Assembly (NCBI RefSeq): GCF_022846255.1
Contig: NZ_AP025682.1
DNA length: 64,000 bases
From: Escherichia coli
GTDB lineage: Bacteria > Pseudomonadota > Gammaproteobacteria > Enterobacterales > Enterobacteriaceae
Strand: one strand, 5' to 3'
Shown: piece by piece, positions 2,968-57,025 of the stretch
Layout of the letters: each line of letters opens with the position of its first letter
How positions within the stretch are numbered: the first letter of the stretch is position 1
Program-made: the position numbers and the translations under genes
Notes under the pieces: generated by a model
Told to the model about the DNA's origin: nothing
The model's database searches: none
What the model saw: only the letters and a program-made list of their open reading frames with translations

Positions 2968-5238
2968 ATGATGAAAGTATTAATTGTTGAAAGCGAGTTT
3001 CTCCATCAAGACACCTGGGTCGGTAACGCCGTTGAGCGTCTGGCAGATGCTTTAAGCCAGCAAAATGTTACCGTGATTAAATCCACCTCCTTTGATGATG
3101 GTTTTGCCATTCTCTCTTCAAACGAAGCCATTGACTGCCTGATGTTCAGCTATCAAATGGAACATCCGGACGAACATCAAAACGTCAGACAATTGATCGG
3201 TAAGCTTCATGAGCGCCAACAAAACGTGCCGGTCTTCCTGTTGGGCGATCGGGAAAAAGCCCTCGCCGCAATGGACCGGGATCTGCTGGAGCTTGTCGAT
3301 GAATTCGCCTGGATTCTGGAAGATACTGCCGACTTTATCGCCGGACGCGCCGTTGCCGCGATGACCCGCTACCGCCAGCAGCTGTTGCCGCCACTGTTCA
3401 GCGCGCTGATGAAATATAGCGACATCCATGAATATTCCTGGGCAGCGCCAGGCCACCAGGGCGGCGTTGGTTTTACTAAAACACCCGCCGGACGTTTCTA
3501 CCATGACTACTATGGTGAAAATCTGTTCCGCACCGACATGGGCATCGAACGCACTTCCCTCGGTTCTTTGCTTGACCATACTGGCGCATTTGGCGAAAGC
3601 GAAAAATATGCCGCACGCGTATTTGGTGCCGATCGCTCCTGGTCGGTAGTCGTCGGTACTTCCGGCTCTAACCGCACCATCATGCAGGCTTGCATGACCG
3701 ATAACGATGTCGTGGTCGTTGACCGTAACTGCCATAAATCCATCGAACAAGGCTTGATGCTGACAGGCGCGAAACCGGTCTACATGGTGCCAAGCCGCAA
3801 CCGCTACGGCATTATCGGGCCAATCTATCCGCAGGAAATGCAACCTGAAACCTTGCAGAAGAAAATCAGTGAAAGCCCGCTGACCAAAGACAAAGCCGGG
3901 CAAAAACCGTCTTACTGCGTGGTGACCAACTGCACCTATGACGGCGTGTGTTATAACGCTAGAGAAGCACAGGATCTGCTGGAAAAAACCTCCGATCGTC
4001 TGCACTTTGACGAAGCCTGGTACGGCTATGCACGTTTCAACCCGATCTATGCCGATCACTATGCCATGCGCGGCGAACCTGGCGATCACAACGGTCCTAC
4101 CGTTTTCGCCACCCACTCCACCCACAAACTGCTGAATGCGCTGTCCCAGGCCTCTTATATTCATGTACGTGAAGGTCGTGGGGCGATTAACTTCTCCCGC
4201 TTCAACCAGGCCTACATGATGCATGCCACCACCTCCCCGCTGTATGCCATCTGCGCATCCAACGACGTGGCGGTGTCGATGATGGACGGCAACAGCGGCC
4301 TGTCACTGACCCAGGAAGTGATCGACGAAGCGGTTGATTTCCGTCAGGCGATGGCGCGGCTATATAAAGAGTTCACCGCTGACGGTAGCTGGTTCTTCAA
4401 ACCGTGGAACAAAGAAGTCGTCACCGACCCACAAACCGGCAAAACCTATGACTTTGCTGACGCACCAACCAAACTGCTGACCACCGTTCAGGACTGCTGG
4501 GTCATGCATCCGGGCGAAAGCTGGCACGGCTTCAAAGATATTCCGGATAACTGGAGTATGCTCGACCCAATTAAAGTCAGCATCCTTGCTCCGGGAATGG
4601 GTGAAGATGGTGAACTGGAAGAAACCGGTGTTCCGGCGGCGCTGGTCACTGCCTGGCTTGGTCGCCACGGCATTGTGCCTACCCGCACCACTGACTTCCA
4701 AATTATGTTCCTGTTCTCTATGGGCGTAACCCGTGGGAAATGGGGGACTCTGGTTAACACCCTTTGCTCCTTCAAACGCCACTATGACGCCAACACACCG
4801 CTGGCGCAGGTGATGCCGGAACTTGTTGAACAATATCCTGACACTTACGCGAACATGGGGATTCACGATCTGGGTGACACCATGTTTGCCTGGCTGAAAG
4901 AAAACAACCCTGGCGCACGGTTGAACGAAGCCTATTCCGGCCTGCCGGTGGCGGAAATCACCCCGCGTGAAGCGTACAACGCGATTGTCGACAACAATGT
5001 CGAACTGGTATCCATTGAAAACCTGCCAGGACGCATCGCGGCAAACTCAGTTATCCCGTATCCGCCAGGAATCCCGATGCTGCTGTCTGGTGAAAACTTC
5101 GGCGATAAAAACAGTCCGCAAGTAAGTTATTTACGCTCGCTGCAATCCTGGGACCATCATTTCCCTGGATTTGAACACGAAACAGAAGGGACAGAAATTA
5201 TTGATGGTATTTACCACGTTATGTGTGTGAAAGCGTAA
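2968..5238 (+). CDS. adiA: biodegradative (acid-inducible) arginine decarboxylase
   Basis: ORF track 756 aa; recognised as AdiA (PLP-dependent Orn/Lys/Arg decarboxylase fold); the start may be the second ATG at 2971. Confidence 0.9.
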   Translation: MMKVLIVESEFLHQDTWVGNAVERLADALSQQNVTVIKSTSFDDGFAILSSNEAIDCLMFSYQMEHPDEHQNVRQLIGKLHERQQNVPVFLLGDREKALAAMDRDLLELVDEFAWILEDTADFIAGRAVAAMTRYRQQLLPPLFSALMKYSDIHEYSWAAPGHQGGVGFTKTPAGRFYHDYYGENLFRTDMGIERTSLGSLLDHTGAFGESEKYAARVFGADRSWSVVVGTSGSNRTIMQACMTDNDVVVVDRNCHKSIEQGLMLTGAKPVYMVPSRNRYGIIGPIYPQEMQPETLQKKISESPLTKDKAGQKPSYCVVTNCTYDGVCYNAREAQDLLEKTSDRLHFDEAWYGYARFNPIYADHYAMRGEPGDHNGPTVFATHSTHKLLNALSQASYIHVREGRGAINFSRFNQAYMMHATTSPLYAICASNDVAVSMMDGNSGLSLTQEVIDEAVDFRQAMARLYKEFTADGSWFFKPWNKEVVTDPQTGKTYDFADAPTKLLTTVQDCWVMHPGESWHGFKDIPDNWSMLDPIKVSILAPGMGEDGELEETGVPAALVTAWLGRHGIVPTRTTDFQIMFLFSMGVTRGKWGTLVNTLCSFKRHYDANTPLAQVMPELVEQYPDTYANMGIHDLGDTMFAWLKENNPGARLNEAYSGLPVAEITPREAYNAIVDNNVELVSIENLPGRIAANSVIPYPPGIPMLLSGENFGDKNSPQVSYLRSLQSWDHHFPGFEHETEGTEIIDGIYHVMCVKA

Positions 5239-10230: not shown

Positions 10231-11322
10231 ATGCGTTTTCTGCGCCGACCAATATCGCTGCGCCAACGGCTGATATTGACCATCGGGGCCATTTTGTTGG
10301 TGTTTGAGCTGATCAGCGTCTTCTGGCTATGGCATGAAAGTACCGAGCAGATTCAGCTGTTTGAGCAGGCGCTACGCGACAATCGTAACAACGATCGCCA
10401 CATCATGCGTGAGATCCGCGAGGCGGTCGCCAGCCTGATTGTCCCCGGCGTCTTTATGGTCAGCCTGACGCTATTTATCTGCTATCAGGCGGTACGCCGC
10501 ATCACCCGCCCGCTGGCGGAGCTGCAAAAAGAGCTGGAAGCGCGCACCGCCGACAACTTAACGCCCATTGCCATTCACAGCGCCACCCTCGAAATCGAAG
10601 CGGTGGTTTCGGCGTTAAACGATCTGGTCAGTCGCCTGACCAGCACGCTGGATAACGAAAGGTTGTTTACCGCTGACGTCGCGCACGAACTGCGAACGCC
10701 ACTGGCGGGGGTGCGTTTGCATCTGGAACTGCTGGCGAAAACGCATCACATTGATGTAGCACCGTTAGTGGCACGACTTGATCAGATGATGGAGAGCGTC
10801 TCCCAGCTGCTGCAACTGGCGCGTGCCGGACAGTCATTTTCTTCCGGTAATTATCAACATGTAAAACTGCTGGAAGATGTCATTCTCCCCTCGTATGACG
10901 AACTTAGTACCATGCTCGACCAGCGCCAGCAAACCCTGCTATTGCCAGAGAGCGCCGCCGACATCACCGTTCAGGGTGATGCAACCCTGCTGCGGATGTT
11001 ATTGCGAAACCTGGTAGAAAACGCCCATCGTTATAGCCCACAAGGCAGCAACATTATGATTAAGCTGCAAGAAGATGGCGGAGCGGTCATGGCCGTTGAA
11101 GATGAAGGGCCGGGTATTGATGAGAGTAAATGCGGGGAGTTGAGTAAAGCGTTTGTACGAATGGACAGCCGTTATGGCGGAATTGGTCTGGGGTTAAGTA
11201 TTGTCAGCCGCATTACACAGTTGCATCACGGGCAGTTTTTCCTGCAAAACCGGCAAGAGACTTCCGGCACGCGGGCCTGGATACGGCTGAAAAAAGATCA
11301 GTACGTGGCAAACCAGATATAA
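10231..11322 (+). CDS. basS: sensor histidine kinase BasS/PmrB
   Basis: ORF track begins at TTG 10222; the ATG at 10231 gives 363 aa; HisKA H-box (ADVAHELRTPL) and ATPase domain. Confidence 0.88.
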   Translation: MRFLRRPISLRQRLILTIGAILLVFELISVFWLWHESTEQIQLFEQALRDNRNNDRHIMREIREAVASLIVPGVFMVSLTLFICYQAVRRITRPLAELQKELEARTADNLTPIAIHSATLEIEAVVSALNDLVSRLTSTLDNERLFTADVAHELRTPLAGVRLHLELLAKTHHIDVAPLVARLDQMMESVSQLLQLARAGQSFSSGNYQHVKLLEDVILPSYDELSTMLDQRQQTLLLPESAADITVQGDATLLRMLLRNLVENAHRYSPQGSNIMIKLQEDGGAVMAVEDEGPGIDESKCGELSKAFVRMDSRYGGIGLGLSIVSRITQLHHGQFFLQNRQETSGTRAWIRLKKDQYVANQI

Positions 11323-11387
11323 AGAAAGCTGCTGACCACCAGCACGCTGAACACGGTAGTTAAACTTTCATAAACACGGTTTTTCAT
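11298..11387 (-). CDS. pmrR: 29-aa membrane peptide PmrR (MKNRVYESLTTVFSVLVVSSFLYIWFATY)
   Basis: Hand-translated small ORF missing from the ORF track; strong SD GGAGGAGAG upstream; single hydrophobic helix; overlaps the last 25 nt of basS on the opposite strand. Confidence 0.75.
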   Translation of the reverse strand: MKNRVYESLTTVFSVLVVSSFLYIWFATY

Positions 11388-11431
11388 TGCACTCTCCTCC
11401 GTTAACCTGGAGGAGAGTATGCGCGTCAGAG

Positions 11432-11448
11432 ATTAAGTGAACCTTAAG
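11432..11448 (-). promoter_or_regulatory. PmrA box-like CTTAAG-N5-CTTAAT (minus-strand reading) upstream of pmrR
   Basis: Plus strand attaag tgaac cttaag; the reverse complement reproduces the same half-site arrangement seen upstream of eptA. Confidence 0.5.
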
Positions 11449-11498
11449 AGTTCAATTGACCTGATAAGACAGCGTCACATCAGGCCATCCGTTTCAGC

Positions 11499-17105: not shown

Positions 17106-17123
17106 TTGTATTGTGATCGGTAA

Positions 17124-17199
17124 GCCGGATAAGGCGCTCGCGCCGCATCCGGCAACGATGCCGACAGCCTGATGCGACGCTGACCGCGTCTTATCAGGC
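17124..17199. repeat. REP (repetitive extragenic palindrome) pair
   Basis: gccggataaggcgctcgcgccgcatccggc and gcctgatgcgacgctgaccgcgtcttatcaggc; typical REP stem-loops. Confidence 0.75.
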
Positions 17200-17264
17200 T
17201 TCCCTCTCATCTGTATAAATTTCGAACTACACTTAACTGGCTTCTCTTAACTGAGGTCACCATC

Positions 17265-17840: not shown

Positions 17841-18629
17841 ATGCAAACGATTATCCGTGTCGAGAAGCTCGCCAAAACCTTCAATCAGCATCAGGCGCTG
17901 CACGCGGTTGATCTGAACATTCATCACGGTGAAATGGTGGCTCTGCTTGGGCCGTCGGGTTCCGGCAAATCCACCCTTTTACGTCACTTAAGCGGTTTGA
18001 TTACCGGCGATAAATCTGCCGGTAGCCATATCGAGCTGCTGGGCCGCACAGTCCAGCGCGAAGGCCGCCTGGCCCGCGATATCCGCAAAAGCCGCGCCAA
18101 CACCGGCTACATCTTCCAACAATTCAACCTGGTGAATCGCCTGAGCGTACTGGAGAACGTGCTGATTGGCGCGCTCGGCAGCACGCCATTCTGGCGCACC
18201 TGTTTTAGCTACTTCACCCGCGAGCAGAAACAGCGCGCGTTACAGGCGCTGACCCGCGTTGGCATGGTGCACTTTGCCCATCAGCGCGTTTCCACACTCT
18301 CCGGCGGCCAGCAACAGCGTGTGGCGATTGCCCGCGCGCTGATGCAGCAGGCGAAGGTGATTCTGGCCGATGAACCCATCGCCTCGCTGGACCCGGAATC
18401 AGCGCGCATCGTGATGGACACCCTGCGCGACATCAACCAGAACGACGGCATTACCGTGGTCGTCACGCTGCATCAGGTGGATTACGCCCTGCGCTACTGC
18501 GAACGCATCGTCGCCCTGCGCCAGGGGCACGTCTTCTACGACGGCAGCAGCCAACAGTTTGATAACGAACGTTTTGACCATCTCTACCGCAGCATTAACC
18601 GCGTCGAAGAGAACGCGAAAGCTGCCTGA
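17841..18629 (+). CDS. phnC: phosphonate ABC transporter ATP-binding protein
   Basis: ORF track 262 aa; Walker [13 protein letters not shown] signature LSGGQQQR. Confidence 0.9.
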
Positions 18630-18653: not shown

Positions 18654-19670
18654 ATGAACGCTAAGATAATTGCCTCGCTGGCCTTCACCAGCATGTTCAG
18701 CCTCAGCACCCTGTTAAGCCCGGCGCACGCCGAAGAGCAGGAAAAGGCGCTGAATTTCGGCATTATTTCAACGGAATCACAGCAAAACCTGAAACCGCAA
18801 TGGACGCCGTTCTTACAGGATATGGAAAAGAAGCTGGGCGTGAAAGTGAACGCCTTCTTTGCCCCGGACTACGCGGGCATTATCCAGGGAATGCGTTTTA
18901 ATAAAGTGGATATCGCCTGGTACGGCAACCTGTCGGCAATGGAAGCGGTGGATCGCGCCAACGGTCAGGTCTTCGCCCAGACGGTCGCGGCAGATGGATC
19001 GCCGGGTTACTGGAGCGTGTTGATCGTCAACAAAGATAGTCCGATCAACAACCTGAACGATCTGCTGGCGAAGCGGAAAGATCTCACCTTCGGCAATGGC
19101 GATCCTAACTCTACCTCCGGCTTCCTCGTCCCCGGTTACTACGTCTTCGCTAAAAACAATATCTCCGCCAGCGACTTTAAGCGCACCGTCAACGCCGGGC
19201 ATGAAACCAACGCCCTCGCCGTCGCTAACAAGCAAGTGGATGTCGCCACCAACAACACCGAAAACCTCGACAAGCTGAAAACCTCCGCGCCGGAGAAGCT
19301 GAAAGAACTGAAGGTGATCTGGAAATCACCGCTGATCCCTGGCGATCCGATCGTCTGGCGCAAAAATCTTTCCGAAACCACTAAAGACAAGATCTACGAC
19401 TTCTTTATGAATTACGGCAAAACGCCGGAAGAGAAAGCGGTGCTGGAACGCCTGGGCTGGGCCCCGTTCCGCGCCTCCAGCGACCTGCAACTGGTGCCGA
19501 TTCGCCAGCTCGCACTGTTTAAAGAGATGCAAAGCGTGAAGGACAACAAAGGGCTGAACGAACAGGACAAGCTGGCAAAAACCACTGCCATTCAGGTGCA
19601 ACTGGATGATTTGGACCGCCTGAACAACGCGTTAAGCGCAATGAGTTCGGTGAGTAAAGCGGTGCAGTAA
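18654..19670 (+). CDS. phnD: phosphonate ABC transporter periplasmic binding protein
   Basis: ORF track 338 aa; N-terminal signal peptide. Confidence 0.9.
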
Positions 19671-19673
19671 ATC

Positions 19674-19759
19674 GTAGGTCGGATAAGACGCCCGGCGTCG
19701 CATCCGACAATGTGCAGACGTTGATGCCGGATGCGGTGCAAGCACCTTATCCGGCCTAC
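19674..19759. repeat. REP pair between phnD and phnE
   Basis: gtaggtcggataagacgcccggcgtcgcatccgaca and gatgccggatgcggtgcaagcaccttatccggcctac. Confidence 0.75.
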
Positions 19760-19774
19760 AGACCGGAGCCAAAC

Positions 19775-20554
19775 ATGCAAACCATCACCATCGCCCCACC
19801 CAAGCGCAGCTGGTTCTCGCTTCTGAGCTGGGCCGTTGTTATCGCCGTGCTGGTCGTCTCGTGGCAGGGCGCGGAAATGGCCCCGCTTACGCTGATTAAA
19901 GATGGCGGCAACATGGCGACGTTCGCCGCCGACTTCTTCCCGCCCGATTTCAGCCAGTGGCAGGATTACCTCACCGAAATGGCCGTCACGCTGCAAATCG
20001 CCGTCTGGGGCACCGCGCTGGCGGTGGTTCTCTCCATCCCCTTCGGCCTGATGAGCGCTGAAAACCTGGTACCGTGGTGGGTCTACCAACCTGTACGCCG
20101 CCTGATGGACGCCTGCCGCGCCATTAACGAAATGGTCTTCGCCATGCTGTTCGTGGTCGCCGTCGGCCTCGGCCCGTTCGCTGGCGTGCTGGCGCTGTTT
20201 ATCCACACCACCGGCGTACTTTCCAAACTGCTTTCCGAAGCGGTAGAAGCGATTGAACCCGGCCCGGTGGAGGGCATTCGCGCCACTGGTGCCAACAAGC
20301 TGGAAGAGATCCTCTACGGCGTACTACCGCAGGTCATGCCGCTGCTGATTTCCTACTCTCTCTATCGCTTCGAATCCAACGTCCGCTCGGCGACCGTCGT
20401 CGGTATGGTTGGCGCGGGCGGAATTGGCGTCACGCTGTGGGAAGCGATTCGCGGTTTCCAGTTCCAGCAAACCTGCGCCCTGATGGTGCTCATCATCGTC
20501 ACGGTCAGCCTGCTGGATTTCCTCTCTCAACGGTTGCGTAAGCACTTTATCTGA
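19775..20554 (+). CDS. phnE: phosphonate ABC transporter permease (intact reading frame)
   Basis: ORF track 19712..20554 starts inside the REP; ATG 19775 with SD GGAG gives 259 aa (MQTITIAPP...); no frameshift. Confidence 0.85.
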
Positions 20555-24236: not shown

Positions 24237-24991
24237 ATCAACCGTTACTTTCGGTCAATAACCTGACCCACCTTTACGCGCCGGGCAAAGGCTTTAGCGA
24301 TGTCTCTTTTGATTTATGGCCGGGGGAAGTGCTGGGCATCGTCGGGGAATCCGGCTCCGGGAAGACCACGCTGCTGAAGTCGATCTCCGCGCGCCTGACG
24401 CCGCAGCAGGGGGAAATTCGCTATGAAAACCGTTCCCTCTATGGCATGAGCGAGGCCGACCGCCGTCGCCTGCTGCGCACCGAATGGGGCGTGGTGCATC
24501 AGCATCCACTCGACGGCCTGCGCCGCCAGGTGTCGGCAGGCGGCAATATCGGCGAGCGGCTGATGGCGACCGGGGCGCGTCATTACGGCGATATTCGTGC
24601 CACCGCGCAGAAGTGGCTGGAAGAGGTGGAAATTCCCGCCAACCGGATCGACGACCTGCCGACCACCTTTTCCGGCGGTATGCAGCAGCGTTTGCAGATT
24701 GCCCGCAACCTGGTGACGCATCCGAAGCTGGTATTTATGGACGAGCCAACCGGCGGGCTGGATGTATCTGTGCAGGCGCGCCTGCTCGACCTGCTGCGCG
24801 GCCTGGTGGTGGAGCTGAACCTGGCGGTGGTGATTGTCACCCACGATTTAGGCGTCGCCCGCCTGCTGGCGGACCGTTTGCTGGTGATGAAGCAGGGGCA
24901 AGTAGTGGAGAGTGGGTTAACCGACCGCGTGCTCGACGACCCGCATCACCCGTATACCCAGCTGCTGGTGTCATCTGTTTTGCAGAATTGA
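24233..24991 (+). CDS. phnK: C-P lyase-associated ABC-type ATPase
   Basis: ORF track trimmed to ATG 24233 (252 aa); Walker [10 protein letters not shown]. Confidence 0.85.
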
Positions 24992-25082
<91 letters not shown>

Positions 25083-25101
25083 CCGAACCACGAGGCGAAA
25101 A

Positions 25102-25782
25102 ATGATTAACGTACAAAACGTCAGTAAAACCTTCATCCTGCATCAGCAAAACGGCGTGCGCCTGCCCGTATTACAACGTGCCTCGCTCACCGTCAACGCA
25201 GGCGAATGCGTGGTGCTTCACGGCCACTCCGGCAGCGGAAAATCAACCCTGCTGCGCTCGCTGTACGCCAACTATCTGCCCGACGAAGGGCAAATCCAGA
25301 TCAAACACGGTGAGGAATGGGTAGACCTGGTCACCGCGCCAGCCCGCAAAGTGGTGGAGATCCGCAAAACCACCATCGGCTGGGTGAGCCAGTTTCTGCG
25401 CGTCATCCCGCGTATTTCGGCACTGGAAGTGGTGATGCAGCCTCTGCTCGATACCGGCGTACCGCGTGAAGCCTGCGCCGCTAAAGCCGCCCGATTACTG
25501 ACGCGCCTGAACGTGCCTGAACGCCTGTGGCACCTGGCACCATCGACCTTCTCCGGCGGCGAACAGCAGCGCGTCAACATCGCCCGTGGCTTTATCGTCG
25601 ACTATCCGATTCTGCTGCTGGATGAACCCACCGCCTCGCTGGACGCTAAAAACAGCGCCGCGGTGGTGGAATTAATTCGCGAAGCCAAAGCCCGTGGCGC
25701 GGCCATCGTCGGTATCTTCCATGACGAAGCCGTACGCAATGACGTCGCCGACCGCCTGCACCCAATGGGAGTCTCTTCATGA
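25102..25782 (+). CDS. phnL: C-P lyase-associated ABC-type ATPase
   Basis: ORF track 24484..25782 is an over-extension through the REP; ATG 25102 gives 226 aa ([11 protein letters not shown]...); Walker [10 protein letters not shown]. Confidence 0.85.
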
Positions 25783-43510: not shown

Positions 43511-45658
43511 ATGAAAAAAGTCGTCACGGTTTGCCCCTATTGCGCGTCAGGTTGCAAAATCAACCTGGTCGTCGATAACGGCAAAATCGTCCGGGCGGAG
43601 GCAGCGCAGGGGAAAACCAACCAGGGTACCCTGTGTCTGAAGGGTTATTATGGCTGGGACTTCATTAACGATACCCAGATCCTGACCCCGCGCCTGAAAA
43701 CCCCCATGATCCGTCGCCAGCGTGGCGGCAAACTCGAACCTGTTTCCTGGGATGAGGCACTGAATTACGTTGCCGAGCGCCTGAGCGCCATCAAAGAGAA
43801 GTACGGTCCGGATGCCATCCAGACGACCGGCTCCTCGCGTGGTACGGGTAACGAAACCAACTATGTAATGCAAAAATTTGCGCGCGCCGTTATTGGTACC
43901 AATAACGTTGACTGCTGCGCTCGTGTCTGACACGGCCCATCGGTTGCAGGTCTGCACCAATCGGTCGGTAATGGCGCAATGAGCAATGCTATTAACGAAA
44001 TTGATAATACCGATTTAGTGTTCGTTTTCGGGTATAACCCGGCGGATTCCCACCCAATCGTGGCGAATCACGTAATTAACGCTAAACGTAACGGGGCGAA
44101 AATTATCGTCTGCGATCCGCGCAAAATTGAAACTGCGCGCATTGCTGACATGCACATTGCATTGAAAAACGGCTCGAACATCGCGCTGTTGAATGCGATG
44201 GGCCATGTCATTATTGAAGAAAATCTGTACGACAAAGCGTTCGTCGCTTCCCGTACAGAAGGCTTTGAAGAGTATCGTAAAATCGTTGAAGGCTACACGC
44301 CGGAGTCGGTTGAAGATATCACCGGCGTCAGCGCCAGTGAGATTCGTCAGGCGGCATGGATGTATGCCCAGGCGAAAAGCGCCGCCATCCTGTGGGGCAT
44401 GGGTGTAACCCAGTTCTACCAGGGCGTGGAAACCGTGCGTTCTCTGACCAGCCTCGCGATGCTGACCGGTAACCTCGGTAAGCCACATGCGGGTGTTAAC
44501 CCGGTTCGTGGTCAGAACAACGTACAGGGTGCCTGCGATATGGGCGCGCTGCCGGATACGTATCCGGGATACCAGTACGTGAAAGATCCGGCTAACCGCG
44601 AGAAATTCGCCAAAGCCTGGGGCGTGGAAAGCCTGCCCGCTCATACCGGTTATCGCATCAGCGAGCTGCCGCACCGCGCAGCGCATGGTGAAGTGCGTGC
44701 CGCGTACATTATGGGCGAAGATCCGCTACAAACTGACGCGGAGCTGTCGGCAGTACGTAAAGCCTTTGAAGATCTGGAACTGGTCATCGTTCAGGACATC
44801 TTTATGACCAAAACCGCGTCGGCGGCGGATGTCATTTTACCGTCAACGTCGTGGGGCGAGCATGAAGGCGTGTTTACTGCGGCTGACCGTGGCTTCCAGC
44901 GTTTCTTTAAAGCAGTTGAACCGAAATGGGATCTGAAAACGGACTGGCAGATTATCAGTGAAATCGCCACCCGTATGGGTTATCCGATGCACTACAACAA
45001 CACCCAGGAGATCTGGGATGAGTTGCGTCATCTGTGCCCGGATTTCTACGGTGCGACTTACGAGAAAATGGGCGAACTGGGCTTCATTCAGTGGCCTTGC
45101 CGCGATACTTCAGATGCCGATCAGGGGACTTCTTATCTGTTTAAAGAGAAGTTTGATACCCCGAACGGTCTGGCGCAGTTCTTCACCTGCGACTGGGTAG
45201 CGCCAATCGACAAACTCACCGACGAGTACCCGATGGTACTGTCAACGGTGCGTGAAGTTGGTCACTACTCTTGCCGTTCGATGACCGGTAACTGTGCGGC
45301 ACTGGCGGCGCTGGCTGATGAACCTGGCTACGCACAAATCAATACCGAAGACGCCAAACGTCTGGGTATTGAAGATGAGGCATTGGTTTGGGTGCACTCG
45401 CGTAAAGGCAAAATTATCACCCGTGCGCAGGTCAGCGATCGTCCGAACAAAGGGGCGATTTACATGACCTACCAGTGGTGGATTGGTGCCTGTAACGAGC
45501 TGGTTACCGAAAACTTAAGCCCGATTACGAAAACGCCGGAATACAAATACTGCGCCGTGCGCGTCGAGCCGATCGCCGATCAGCGCGCCGCCGAGCAGTA
45601 TGTGATTGACGAGTACAACAAGTTGAAAACTCGCCTGCGCGAAGCGGCACTGGCGTAA
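43511..45658 (+). CDS. fdhF: formate dehydrogenase H, selenocysteine-containing molybdoenzyme (in-frame UGA 43928..43930 read as Sec)
   Basis: ORF track splits it into 43511..43930 and 43979..45658, both in one frame; Cys-rich N-terminal Fe-S motif; SECIS hairpin directly after the UGA; total 715 codons. Confidence 0.9.
43931..43975 (+). other. SECIS stem-loop for selenocysteine insertion in fdhF mRNA
   Basis: cacggcccatcggttgcaggtctgcaccaatcggtcggtaatggc immediately 3' of the in-frame TGA. Confidence 0.75.
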
Positions 45659-56910: not shown

Positions 56911-57025
56911 GCCGGATGCGCTCCGGGCAACAAGTCGGAAACGATTTGTAGGCCTGATAAGACGCGACAGCGTCGCATCAGGCGTTGATTGCCGGATGCG
57001 GCGTGAATGCCTTATCCGGCCTACA
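56911..57025. repeat. REP cluster downstream of acs
   Basis: Three REP-like units with the gccggatgcg... and gcctgataagacgcg... cores. Confidence 0.7.

Follow-up and report, generated by a model that had tools for sequence, protein, structure and literature searches.

A REP pair between phnD and phnE of Escherichia coli, counterpart of REP324, at a junction occupied by hairpins of several families

In 1987, Newbury and colleagues (Cell 48:297) reportedly found that intercistronic REPs at malE-malF and hisJ-hisQ protect the upstream mRNA. The order of elements in these two operons is the same as in the phn operon: a periplasmic binding-protein gene, one or more REP hairpins, then a gene for a membrane component. 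What sets phn apart from both of them is a REP placed very close to the stop codon, and protection there is something that we only infer. A closer relative is REP325, or naRNA4, located about 2.5 kb upstream between yjdM and yjdN, which is built from the same Y-linker-Z type of unit and also lies between co-oriented genes of one transcription unit. Experimentally, REP325 stabilises the upstream yjdM and attenuates the downstream yjdN by about 8-10 fold, partly through Rho. It is composed of 6 units (12 palindromes) in K-12 but of one unit in the DNA analysed here, a 64-kb stretch of E. coli DNA hereafter called the window. The phnD-phnE pair differs from it in being a single unit, in the opposite orientation to REP325 with respect to transcription, with a linker of 15 nt versus 11 nt. 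In the window, the single unit of the yjdM-yjdN slot lies at 17123-17200 and scores 85.5 bits against the Rfam family RF02564, compared with six units in K-12 REP325, and the intergenic gap measures about 160 nt versus 658 nt in K-12.

The phnD-phnE locus itself is already described in K-12, where the supplement of Harris et al. (2026) lists REP324 (4323333-4323247) as a tandem pair at phnD/phnE. We have taken the name from this supplement because the MG1655 record that we used shows no repeat_region features. REP324 of K-12 MG1655 (4323247-4323333) and the pair in the window occupy the same locus and consist of the same two units, inverted Y and Z, with a short linker. The spacers, 104 nt in the window and 105 nt in K-12, differ by one substitution in the linker (A in the window, G in K-12, at 19718) and by an indel of one C, which is missing from the REP1 loop of the window; both sites are unpaired and nothing else of substance separates the two elements.

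The BoxC repeats, also called PIT or TMECO and described as intrastrand-triplex repeats (Holder et al. 2015, PMC4666352), occupy the same slot in about one quarter of E. coli genomes, and in several other genera too, e.g. Enterobacter, Leclercia, Lelliottia and Kluyvera. Like the REP pair, they are palindromic as inverted A+B pairs and form a strong hairpin; unlike it, they belong to an unrelated family of CCCTCNCCC/GGGNGAGGG blocks, are structurally unstable and are absent from the slot in the window. No terminator activity was reported for them (Holder et al. 2015, PMC4666352).

The REP pair in the phnD-phnE spacer

The 801 bases around the REP pair match 5,395 of the 5,426 complete E. coli genomes, with a best identity of 99.4%. 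The window contains phnC (17841-18629), phnD, phnE and phnF of the phosphonate operon phnC-P, which is silent unless the cell is starved for phosphate. The phnD gene, annotated as such in the matching E. coli genomes, ends with a TAA at 19668-19670. In K-12, phnE is a pseudogene, cryptic because of an 8-bp duplication and frameshift; here, phnE lacks this duplication and is intact. A repeat-prone site, GCTGGCGTGCTGGCG, is present in phnE at 20180-20194. The features of the region are as follows.

18654-19670, + strand: phnD, phosphonate ABC transporter periplasmic binding protein, 338 aa (TIGR03431, 376.5 bits)
19674-19759, strand undefined: whole REP pair, a BIME-type unit and counterpart of K-12 REP324 (repeats, fold, Rfam RF02564)
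19674-19709, - strand: REP1, Z-type unit (palindromes, tail motif, folding, alignment with the Z half of the naRNA4/REP325 unit)
19710-19724, + strand: linker ATGTGCAGACGTTGA, 15 nt, head-to-head between REP1 and REP2
19712-19714, + strand: GTG, start of the mechanical 280-aa ORF (19712-20554); false start without Shine-Dalgarno (SD) sequence, G19712/U19713 being paired in the predicted ensemble
19724-19726, + strand: ATG, equivalent of the legacy K-12 MG1655 phnE1 start (276-codon form); false start at the 5' edge of REP2
19725-19759, + strand: REP2, Y-type unit (palindromes, tail motif, folding, alignment to REP325 units)
19765-19768, + strand: SD sequence GGAG, 6 nt before ATG 19775 and 5 nt past the end of REP2
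19775-20554, + strand: phnE, phosphonate ABC transporter permease, 259 aa (PGAP start, TIGR01097 311 bits, conserved N-terminus)

The spacer (19671-19774) thus reads ATC, REP1, linker, REP2 and then AGACCGGAGCCAAAC up to the ATG. Two REP stem-loops had been placed by the initial annotation between the binding-protein and permease genes, and both are seen in the sequence and in the repeat search. REP1, GTAGGTCGGATAAGACGCCCGGCGTCGCATCCGACA on the + strand, has a local stem at 19678-19692/19694-19708 with the usual internal mismatch, as found by repeat search and folding, and REP2, TGCCGGATGCGGTGCAAGCACCTTATCCGGCCTAC, a stem at 19726-19739/19742-19755. The arms of the local palindromes measure 15 nt with 87% complementarity and 14 nt with 86%. 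The repeat search also detected pairing of REP1 with REP2 (19674-19687/19746-19759), and the outer ends of this cross-pairing coincide with the limits of the element as initially annotated. REP1 starts 3 nt after the phnD stop codon in the extended fold and 7 nt after it in the local fold.

The two units have the properties expected of REPs. They carry a sequence of the GCCGGATGCG...CTTATCCGGCCTAC type, shared by alignment with the other REPs of the window and with the REP325 units; their palindromes are imperfect, with an internal loop, and fold into hairpins of -19.2 and -19.8 kcal/mol for REP1 and REP2, respectively; and the pair is extragenic, with the phnD stop (19670) before it and the phnE start (19775) after it, so that it would overlap a CDS only if the legacy K-12 start were used. 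A search with the strict 36-nt REP consensus picked up neither unit, owing to the different lengths of their loops, and we therefore used the REP tail motif CTTATCMGRCCTAC in its place: it occurs 9 times in the window versus 0.02 times expected by shuffling, and is present in both units. A Z-type unit on the minus strand followed, after the 15-nt linker, by a Y-type unit on the plus strand corresponds to a BIME organisation. Folded as RNA, the region reaches -54.6 kcal/mol (z = -4.7) and none of 200 shuffled sequences was equally stable; the predicted energy is -41.8 kcal/mol for the two-hairpin state and about -51 kcal/mol for the extended single hairpin. The element is thus an ordinary E. 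coli REP pair, already catalogued as REP324 in K-12. Two other gathering-level Rfam matches of the window are unrelated to the REP pair: the enterobacterial sRNA STnc630 (182 bits, 11291-11456, - strand) and a SECIS_2 selenocysteine insertion element (87 bits, 43923-43977, + strand).

The start codon of phnE

The mechanical ORF starts phnE at 19712, and this start had initially been described as lying inside the REP. It is indeed within the pair, but the GTG is located in the linker between the two units and not in a stem. The linker contains this in-frame GTG, an in-frame TTG at 19721 and the A of the ATG at 19724; all these in-frame codons are by-products of the REP sequence. The real start of phnE is the ATG at 19775, behind the GGAG at 19765-19768, as the initial annotation had argued from the SD sequence, and several observations agree with it.

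We read the D-E spacers of 30 Enterobacteriaceae species, taken from a scan of genome contigs. These spacers range from 22 to 251 nt and are unrelated in sequence while the N-terminus of PhnE stays: the motif MQ(Q)TI..PPKRS, with its ATG and an SD-like motif, is kept in 30/30 of them, the SD region being (A/C/G/T)GGAG in all but one species (locus L009), which has AAGGAAC. The PhnE orthologues begin at the equivalent of 19775, with their N-termini in register. In E. coli, BoxC-type alleles have an in-frame TAA 15 nt before the phnE ATG, and strains 1919D62 (BoxC) and BL21 (REP pair) encode the same 259-aa PhnE, WP_001193500.1. The PGAP annotations of other E. coli genomes likewise give a 780-nt phnE with a 19775-type start. 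On the 280-aa ORF, position 8 of the TIGR01097 profile aligns to residue 37, and the 21-aa extension is therefore outside the PhnE family profile. Finally, a 2019 paper located the 8-bp insertion of K-12 at 407-414 of the phnE ORF, a numbering that fits a 19775-type start when compared with window positions 20180-20187.

A genuinely longer permease, of 280 or 276 aa and translated from GTG 19712 or ATG 19724, could be invoked since no stop interrupts the frame over the 39 codons that precede ATG 19775, and since NC_000913.3 does annotate phnE1 from the ATG equivalent to 19724. We nevertheless regard it as highly improbable: unlike ATG 19775, neither codon is preceded by an SD-like motif, and the first is partly paired in the predicted ensemble while the second sits at the edge of the REP2 stem. 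Moreover, BoxC-type E. coli either lack the extension or close it with a stop, other genera have nothing that corresponds to it, and it is left out both by the family profile and by PGAP.

In the MG1655 record NC_000913.3, the phnE1 pseudogene b4583 starts at 4323281, the equivalent of window position 19724, at an ATG inside REP324 (position 4282 of our K-12 locus L001, the ATG of TTGATGCCGGATG). About 35 nt of an "extragenic" palindrome are therefore included in the annotated CDS, and the conserved PGAP start is found 51 nt downstream of this ATG. The phn operon of the window contains a second REP pair, arranged tail to tail at 24998-25080 between phnK, which ends at 24991, and phnL. There, phnL has its ATG at 25103 behind a GAGG, and the mechanical ORF 24484-25782 reads through the REP pair in the phnL frame; this is the same false-start artefact as in phnE.

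Hairpins at the phnD-phnE junction in E. coli and other Proteobacteria

We compared the folding of the D-E spacer with that of the C-D junction of the same loci. A minimum free energy (MFE) of -15 kcal/mol or lower was observed for the D-E spacer in 28/29 enteric species and 36/47 other Proteobacteria (64/76 species), versus 1/28 and 4/46, respectively, for the C-D junction. The median MFE was -40.6 (enteric) and -24.4 kcal/mol (other) at D-E, and -2.2 and -3.6 kcal/mol at C-D, with spacer lengths that were comparable outside the enterics (median 66 nt for D-E versus 48.5 nt for C-D). The first D-E stem begins at a median of 7-8 nt past the phnD stop, and within 15 nt of it in 58/64 species. 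The junction is filled by REP-like units, by BoxC units or by hairpins matching neither of the motif sets that we scanned. For example, the Atlantibacter hairpin, GTCCTCACGGG-TTCG-CCCGTGAGGAC, shows no match to the REP or BoxC motifs, and Pseudomonas and others have GC-rich stems, some with T-rich tails (the Pseudomonas spacers were read by eye). One enteric genome (L035) has a D-E spacer of 22 nt without a hairpin. Since the junction hairpin is conserved across Proteobacteria whichever family provides its sequence, the REP pair is the form that this feature now takes in E. coli rather than a unique device. Judging from these sequence comparisons, the conservation of a hairpin across species supports a selected structural role for the D-E junction.

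Within E. coli the occupant varies. Over the 5,426 complete genomes, a 144-nt REP-spacer query was covered at at least 80% in 3,873, an alternative short-spacer query was covered in 1,331, which probably include long forms present as joined pieces, and a long-form query in 353; about 190 genomes stay unclassified. The slot is consequently filled by the REP pair in about 71% of complete E. coli genomes and by BoxC/TMECO in about 25%, some of the latter cut down to a short remnant. The consensus of this second occupant is CCCTCNCCC N3-6 GGGNGAGGG N3 GGGNGAGGG, and it appears either as an inverted pair of type A and type B, as at 164547-164631 in K-12, or as a deletion remnant reduced to the stem-loop. 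In the E. coli loci that we fetched, BoxC spacers measured 60, 61, 67, 125 and 139 nt: 125 nt corresponds to the inverted pair, 60-67 nt to remnants and 139 nt to a (GGGAGA)n expansion (examples are L003 1870-1994, L004 1872-1932 and L087 1521-1659). TRIP1 repeats, another candidate for the alternative spacer, were discarded, since their loci and lengths differ and BoxC/TMECO fits. Among the best 80 loci of the genome scan there was no Escherichia species other than E. coli.

The type of spacer does not track the flanking haplotype. Between BL21(DE3), which has the REP pair, and 1919D62, which has a BoxC remnant, we observed 0/1,871 nt differences upstream of the spacer and 2/1,826 downstream; the exchange of REP and BoxC was therefore precise and recent. 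Such polymorphism within one species also means that no particular element is required in the slot. The REP spacer itself is nearly invariant: two of its sites vary among haplotypes with differences at up to 69/1,290 flanking positions. Compared with K-12, the window has 2 changes in the 104 nt of the spacer; in phnD, by contrast, third positions diverge by 13.9% and the last 300 nt contain 25 changes. This low divergence could come from recent recombinational spread instead of constraint.

Outside E. coli, Pseudocitrobacter faecalis DSM 27453 (QNRL01000011.1) encodes PhnD and PhnE about 98% identical to those of E. coli, above any Citrobacter or Enterobacter, and its 251-nt spacer contains the E. 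coli BoxC allele in doubled form. Such a likeness suggests either that the locus was transferred horizontally or that the taxonomy or the assembly is at fault.

A tentative reading of these data is that the D-E junction may be a conserved structural slot, in which selection keeps a stable stem-loop about 7-8 nt past the stop codon across Proteobacteria while the occupants (unique hairpins, species-specific REPs, BoxC/TMECO) are freely replaced, REP and BoxC being an exchangeable polymorphism in E. coli; we hold it as a possibility, on the doubtful side. What the present work adds is the family-independent junction hairpin, the occurrence of REP and BoxC alleles on one and the same haplotype, and the position of the legacy K-12 start within REP324.

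Possible role of the REP pair in phn expression

The function that we favour, and consider fairly probable, is that this BIME-type Z+Y pair, the counterpart of REP324, would act in the phn mRNA to shield phnCD and to damp phnE. The pair would be transcribed within the phn mRNA and would fold either as two hairpins of about -19 kcal/mol each or as one of about -51 kcal/mol. Situated 3-7 nt past the phnD stop, the structure would block 3'-to-5' exonucleases, so that the phnCD segment would outlive the distal message. It would in addition partly attenuate transcription, in a Rho-dependent manner given that there is no T-run, and would uncouple translation into phnE; the expected net outcome would be an excess of binding protein over permease. 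After REP2 comes AGACCGGAGCC, without the T-run of an intrinsic terminator, and our scan detected no intrinsic-terminator-like or promoter-like site in the spacer 19671-19774; since this is so, an exonuclease barrier combined with partial attenuation and translational uncoupling would be the most likely mode of action. The initial annotation had proposed an exonuclease barrier, a lower downstream expression and a higher stoichiometry of PhnD, all of which are plausible by analogy with other REPs.

This role fits the published behaviour of REPs between tandem genes as well as the cross-species conservation of the hairpin. REP-separated tandem pairs have been reported to show a median log upstream/downstream ratio of 0.96 versus -0.09 for controls, and, genome-wide, RNA levels are on average higher for genes located upstream of REPs; REP effects are also reported to be context dependent, with a wide spread. 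A full-text literature search returned nothing specific on REPs in the phn operon. Two entries of the supplement of 10.64898/2026.03.23.713779 concern the neighbourhood: a "NusG plus" row for a feature antisense within phnD (K-12 4323405-4323494, plus strand), 72 nt from REP324, and, in a differential-expression table, listed log2FC values of 1.58 for phnE and 1.13 for phnK.

The pair could also be a dispersed repeat, spread by a REP-associated transposase or by recombination and lodged in a tolerant intercistronic gap, without any selected effect on phn expression; the spacer would then be long because of the repeat and not the reverse. The turnover of the occupant between species and within E. 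coli (REP pair, BoxC pair, remnant, (GGGAGA)n) speaks in this sense, as do the hairpin-less spacer of one enteric genome and the presence of REP and BoxC alleles on identical haplotypes, which makes this turnover recent; in earlier work, moreover, BoxC/PIT elements had neither promoter nor terminator activity. However, a neutral repeat would not readily account for a hairpin in 64/76 species, including taxa such as Atlantibacter and Pseudomonas whose hairpins are unique, when these operons have an unstructured C-D junction, of similar length in non-enterics. Deleted BoxC remnants still keep a stem-loop, and synonymous sites have diverged much more than the REP spacer. We therefore judge a purely neutral origin rather unlikely, though it is the alternative to which we give the most weight.

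An opposite effect on PhnD deserves mention, since the initial annotation leaves out the closeness of REP1 to the phnD stop. According to Liang, Rudd and Deutscher (2015), as related in PMC12306157, E. coli REPs located less than 16 nt from a stop codon cause ribosome stalling and reduce translation of the gene before them, and REP1, at 3-7 nt, falls within the distance given there. By this mechanism, REP1 would stall ribosomes before termination, the mRNA would be cleaved and nascent PhnD tagged by tmRNA, and PhnD output would be lowered, not raised; by analogy, such stalling would contradict the stoichiometry argument. D-E hairpins in general typically lie as close to the stop (58/64 species). 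On the other side, phnD is absent from the RepRanger supplementary text files, and the genome-wide average for genes upstream of REPs points to a higher RNA level. A brake on PhnD thus appears to us improbable as the main effect of the pair, although it may coexist with protection of the upstream message. Much less credible still is the idea that the pair encodes a naRNA4-like small RNA, or forms a DNA cruciform, acting with HU in chromosome organisation. It would draw on the sole Rfam match of the pair, RF02564 (naRNA4), which on the minus strand scores 65.3 bits, above the gathering threshold of 59.5, but on the plus strand, that of the phn mRNA, reaches 52.3 bits, below it. This family was built from REP325 units and also matches window positions 17123-17200 and 56951-57021 and the phnD-phnE pair of K-12; since other Y-Z REP pairs match it too, the match says only "REP pair", and we rejected naRNA4 as a distinct RNA gene at this locus. 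Besides, the better-scoring strand is antisense to the operon, and our scan gave no promoter-like site nearby. The nucleoid role proposed for naRNA4 is itself contested: REP325/naRNA4 produced no measurable nucleoid compaction and no stable HU-cruciform-RNA complex (Harris et al. 2026).

With protection of phnCD and damping of phnE as the favoured role, the phn REP pair adds one case to the known pattern of a REP hairpin placed after the binding-protein gene of an ABC importer. It also illustrates, together with the phnK-phnL pair of the window, that REP sequence, when in frame, repeatedly generates spurious N-terminal extensions. A natural experiment on the effects of such elements on intra-operon expression is provided by E. 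coli strains that share their flanks but carry either the REP pair or a BoxC remnant. If the D-E junction is indeed a structural slot, dispersed palindromic repeats would be interchangeable parts for tuning expression within operons.
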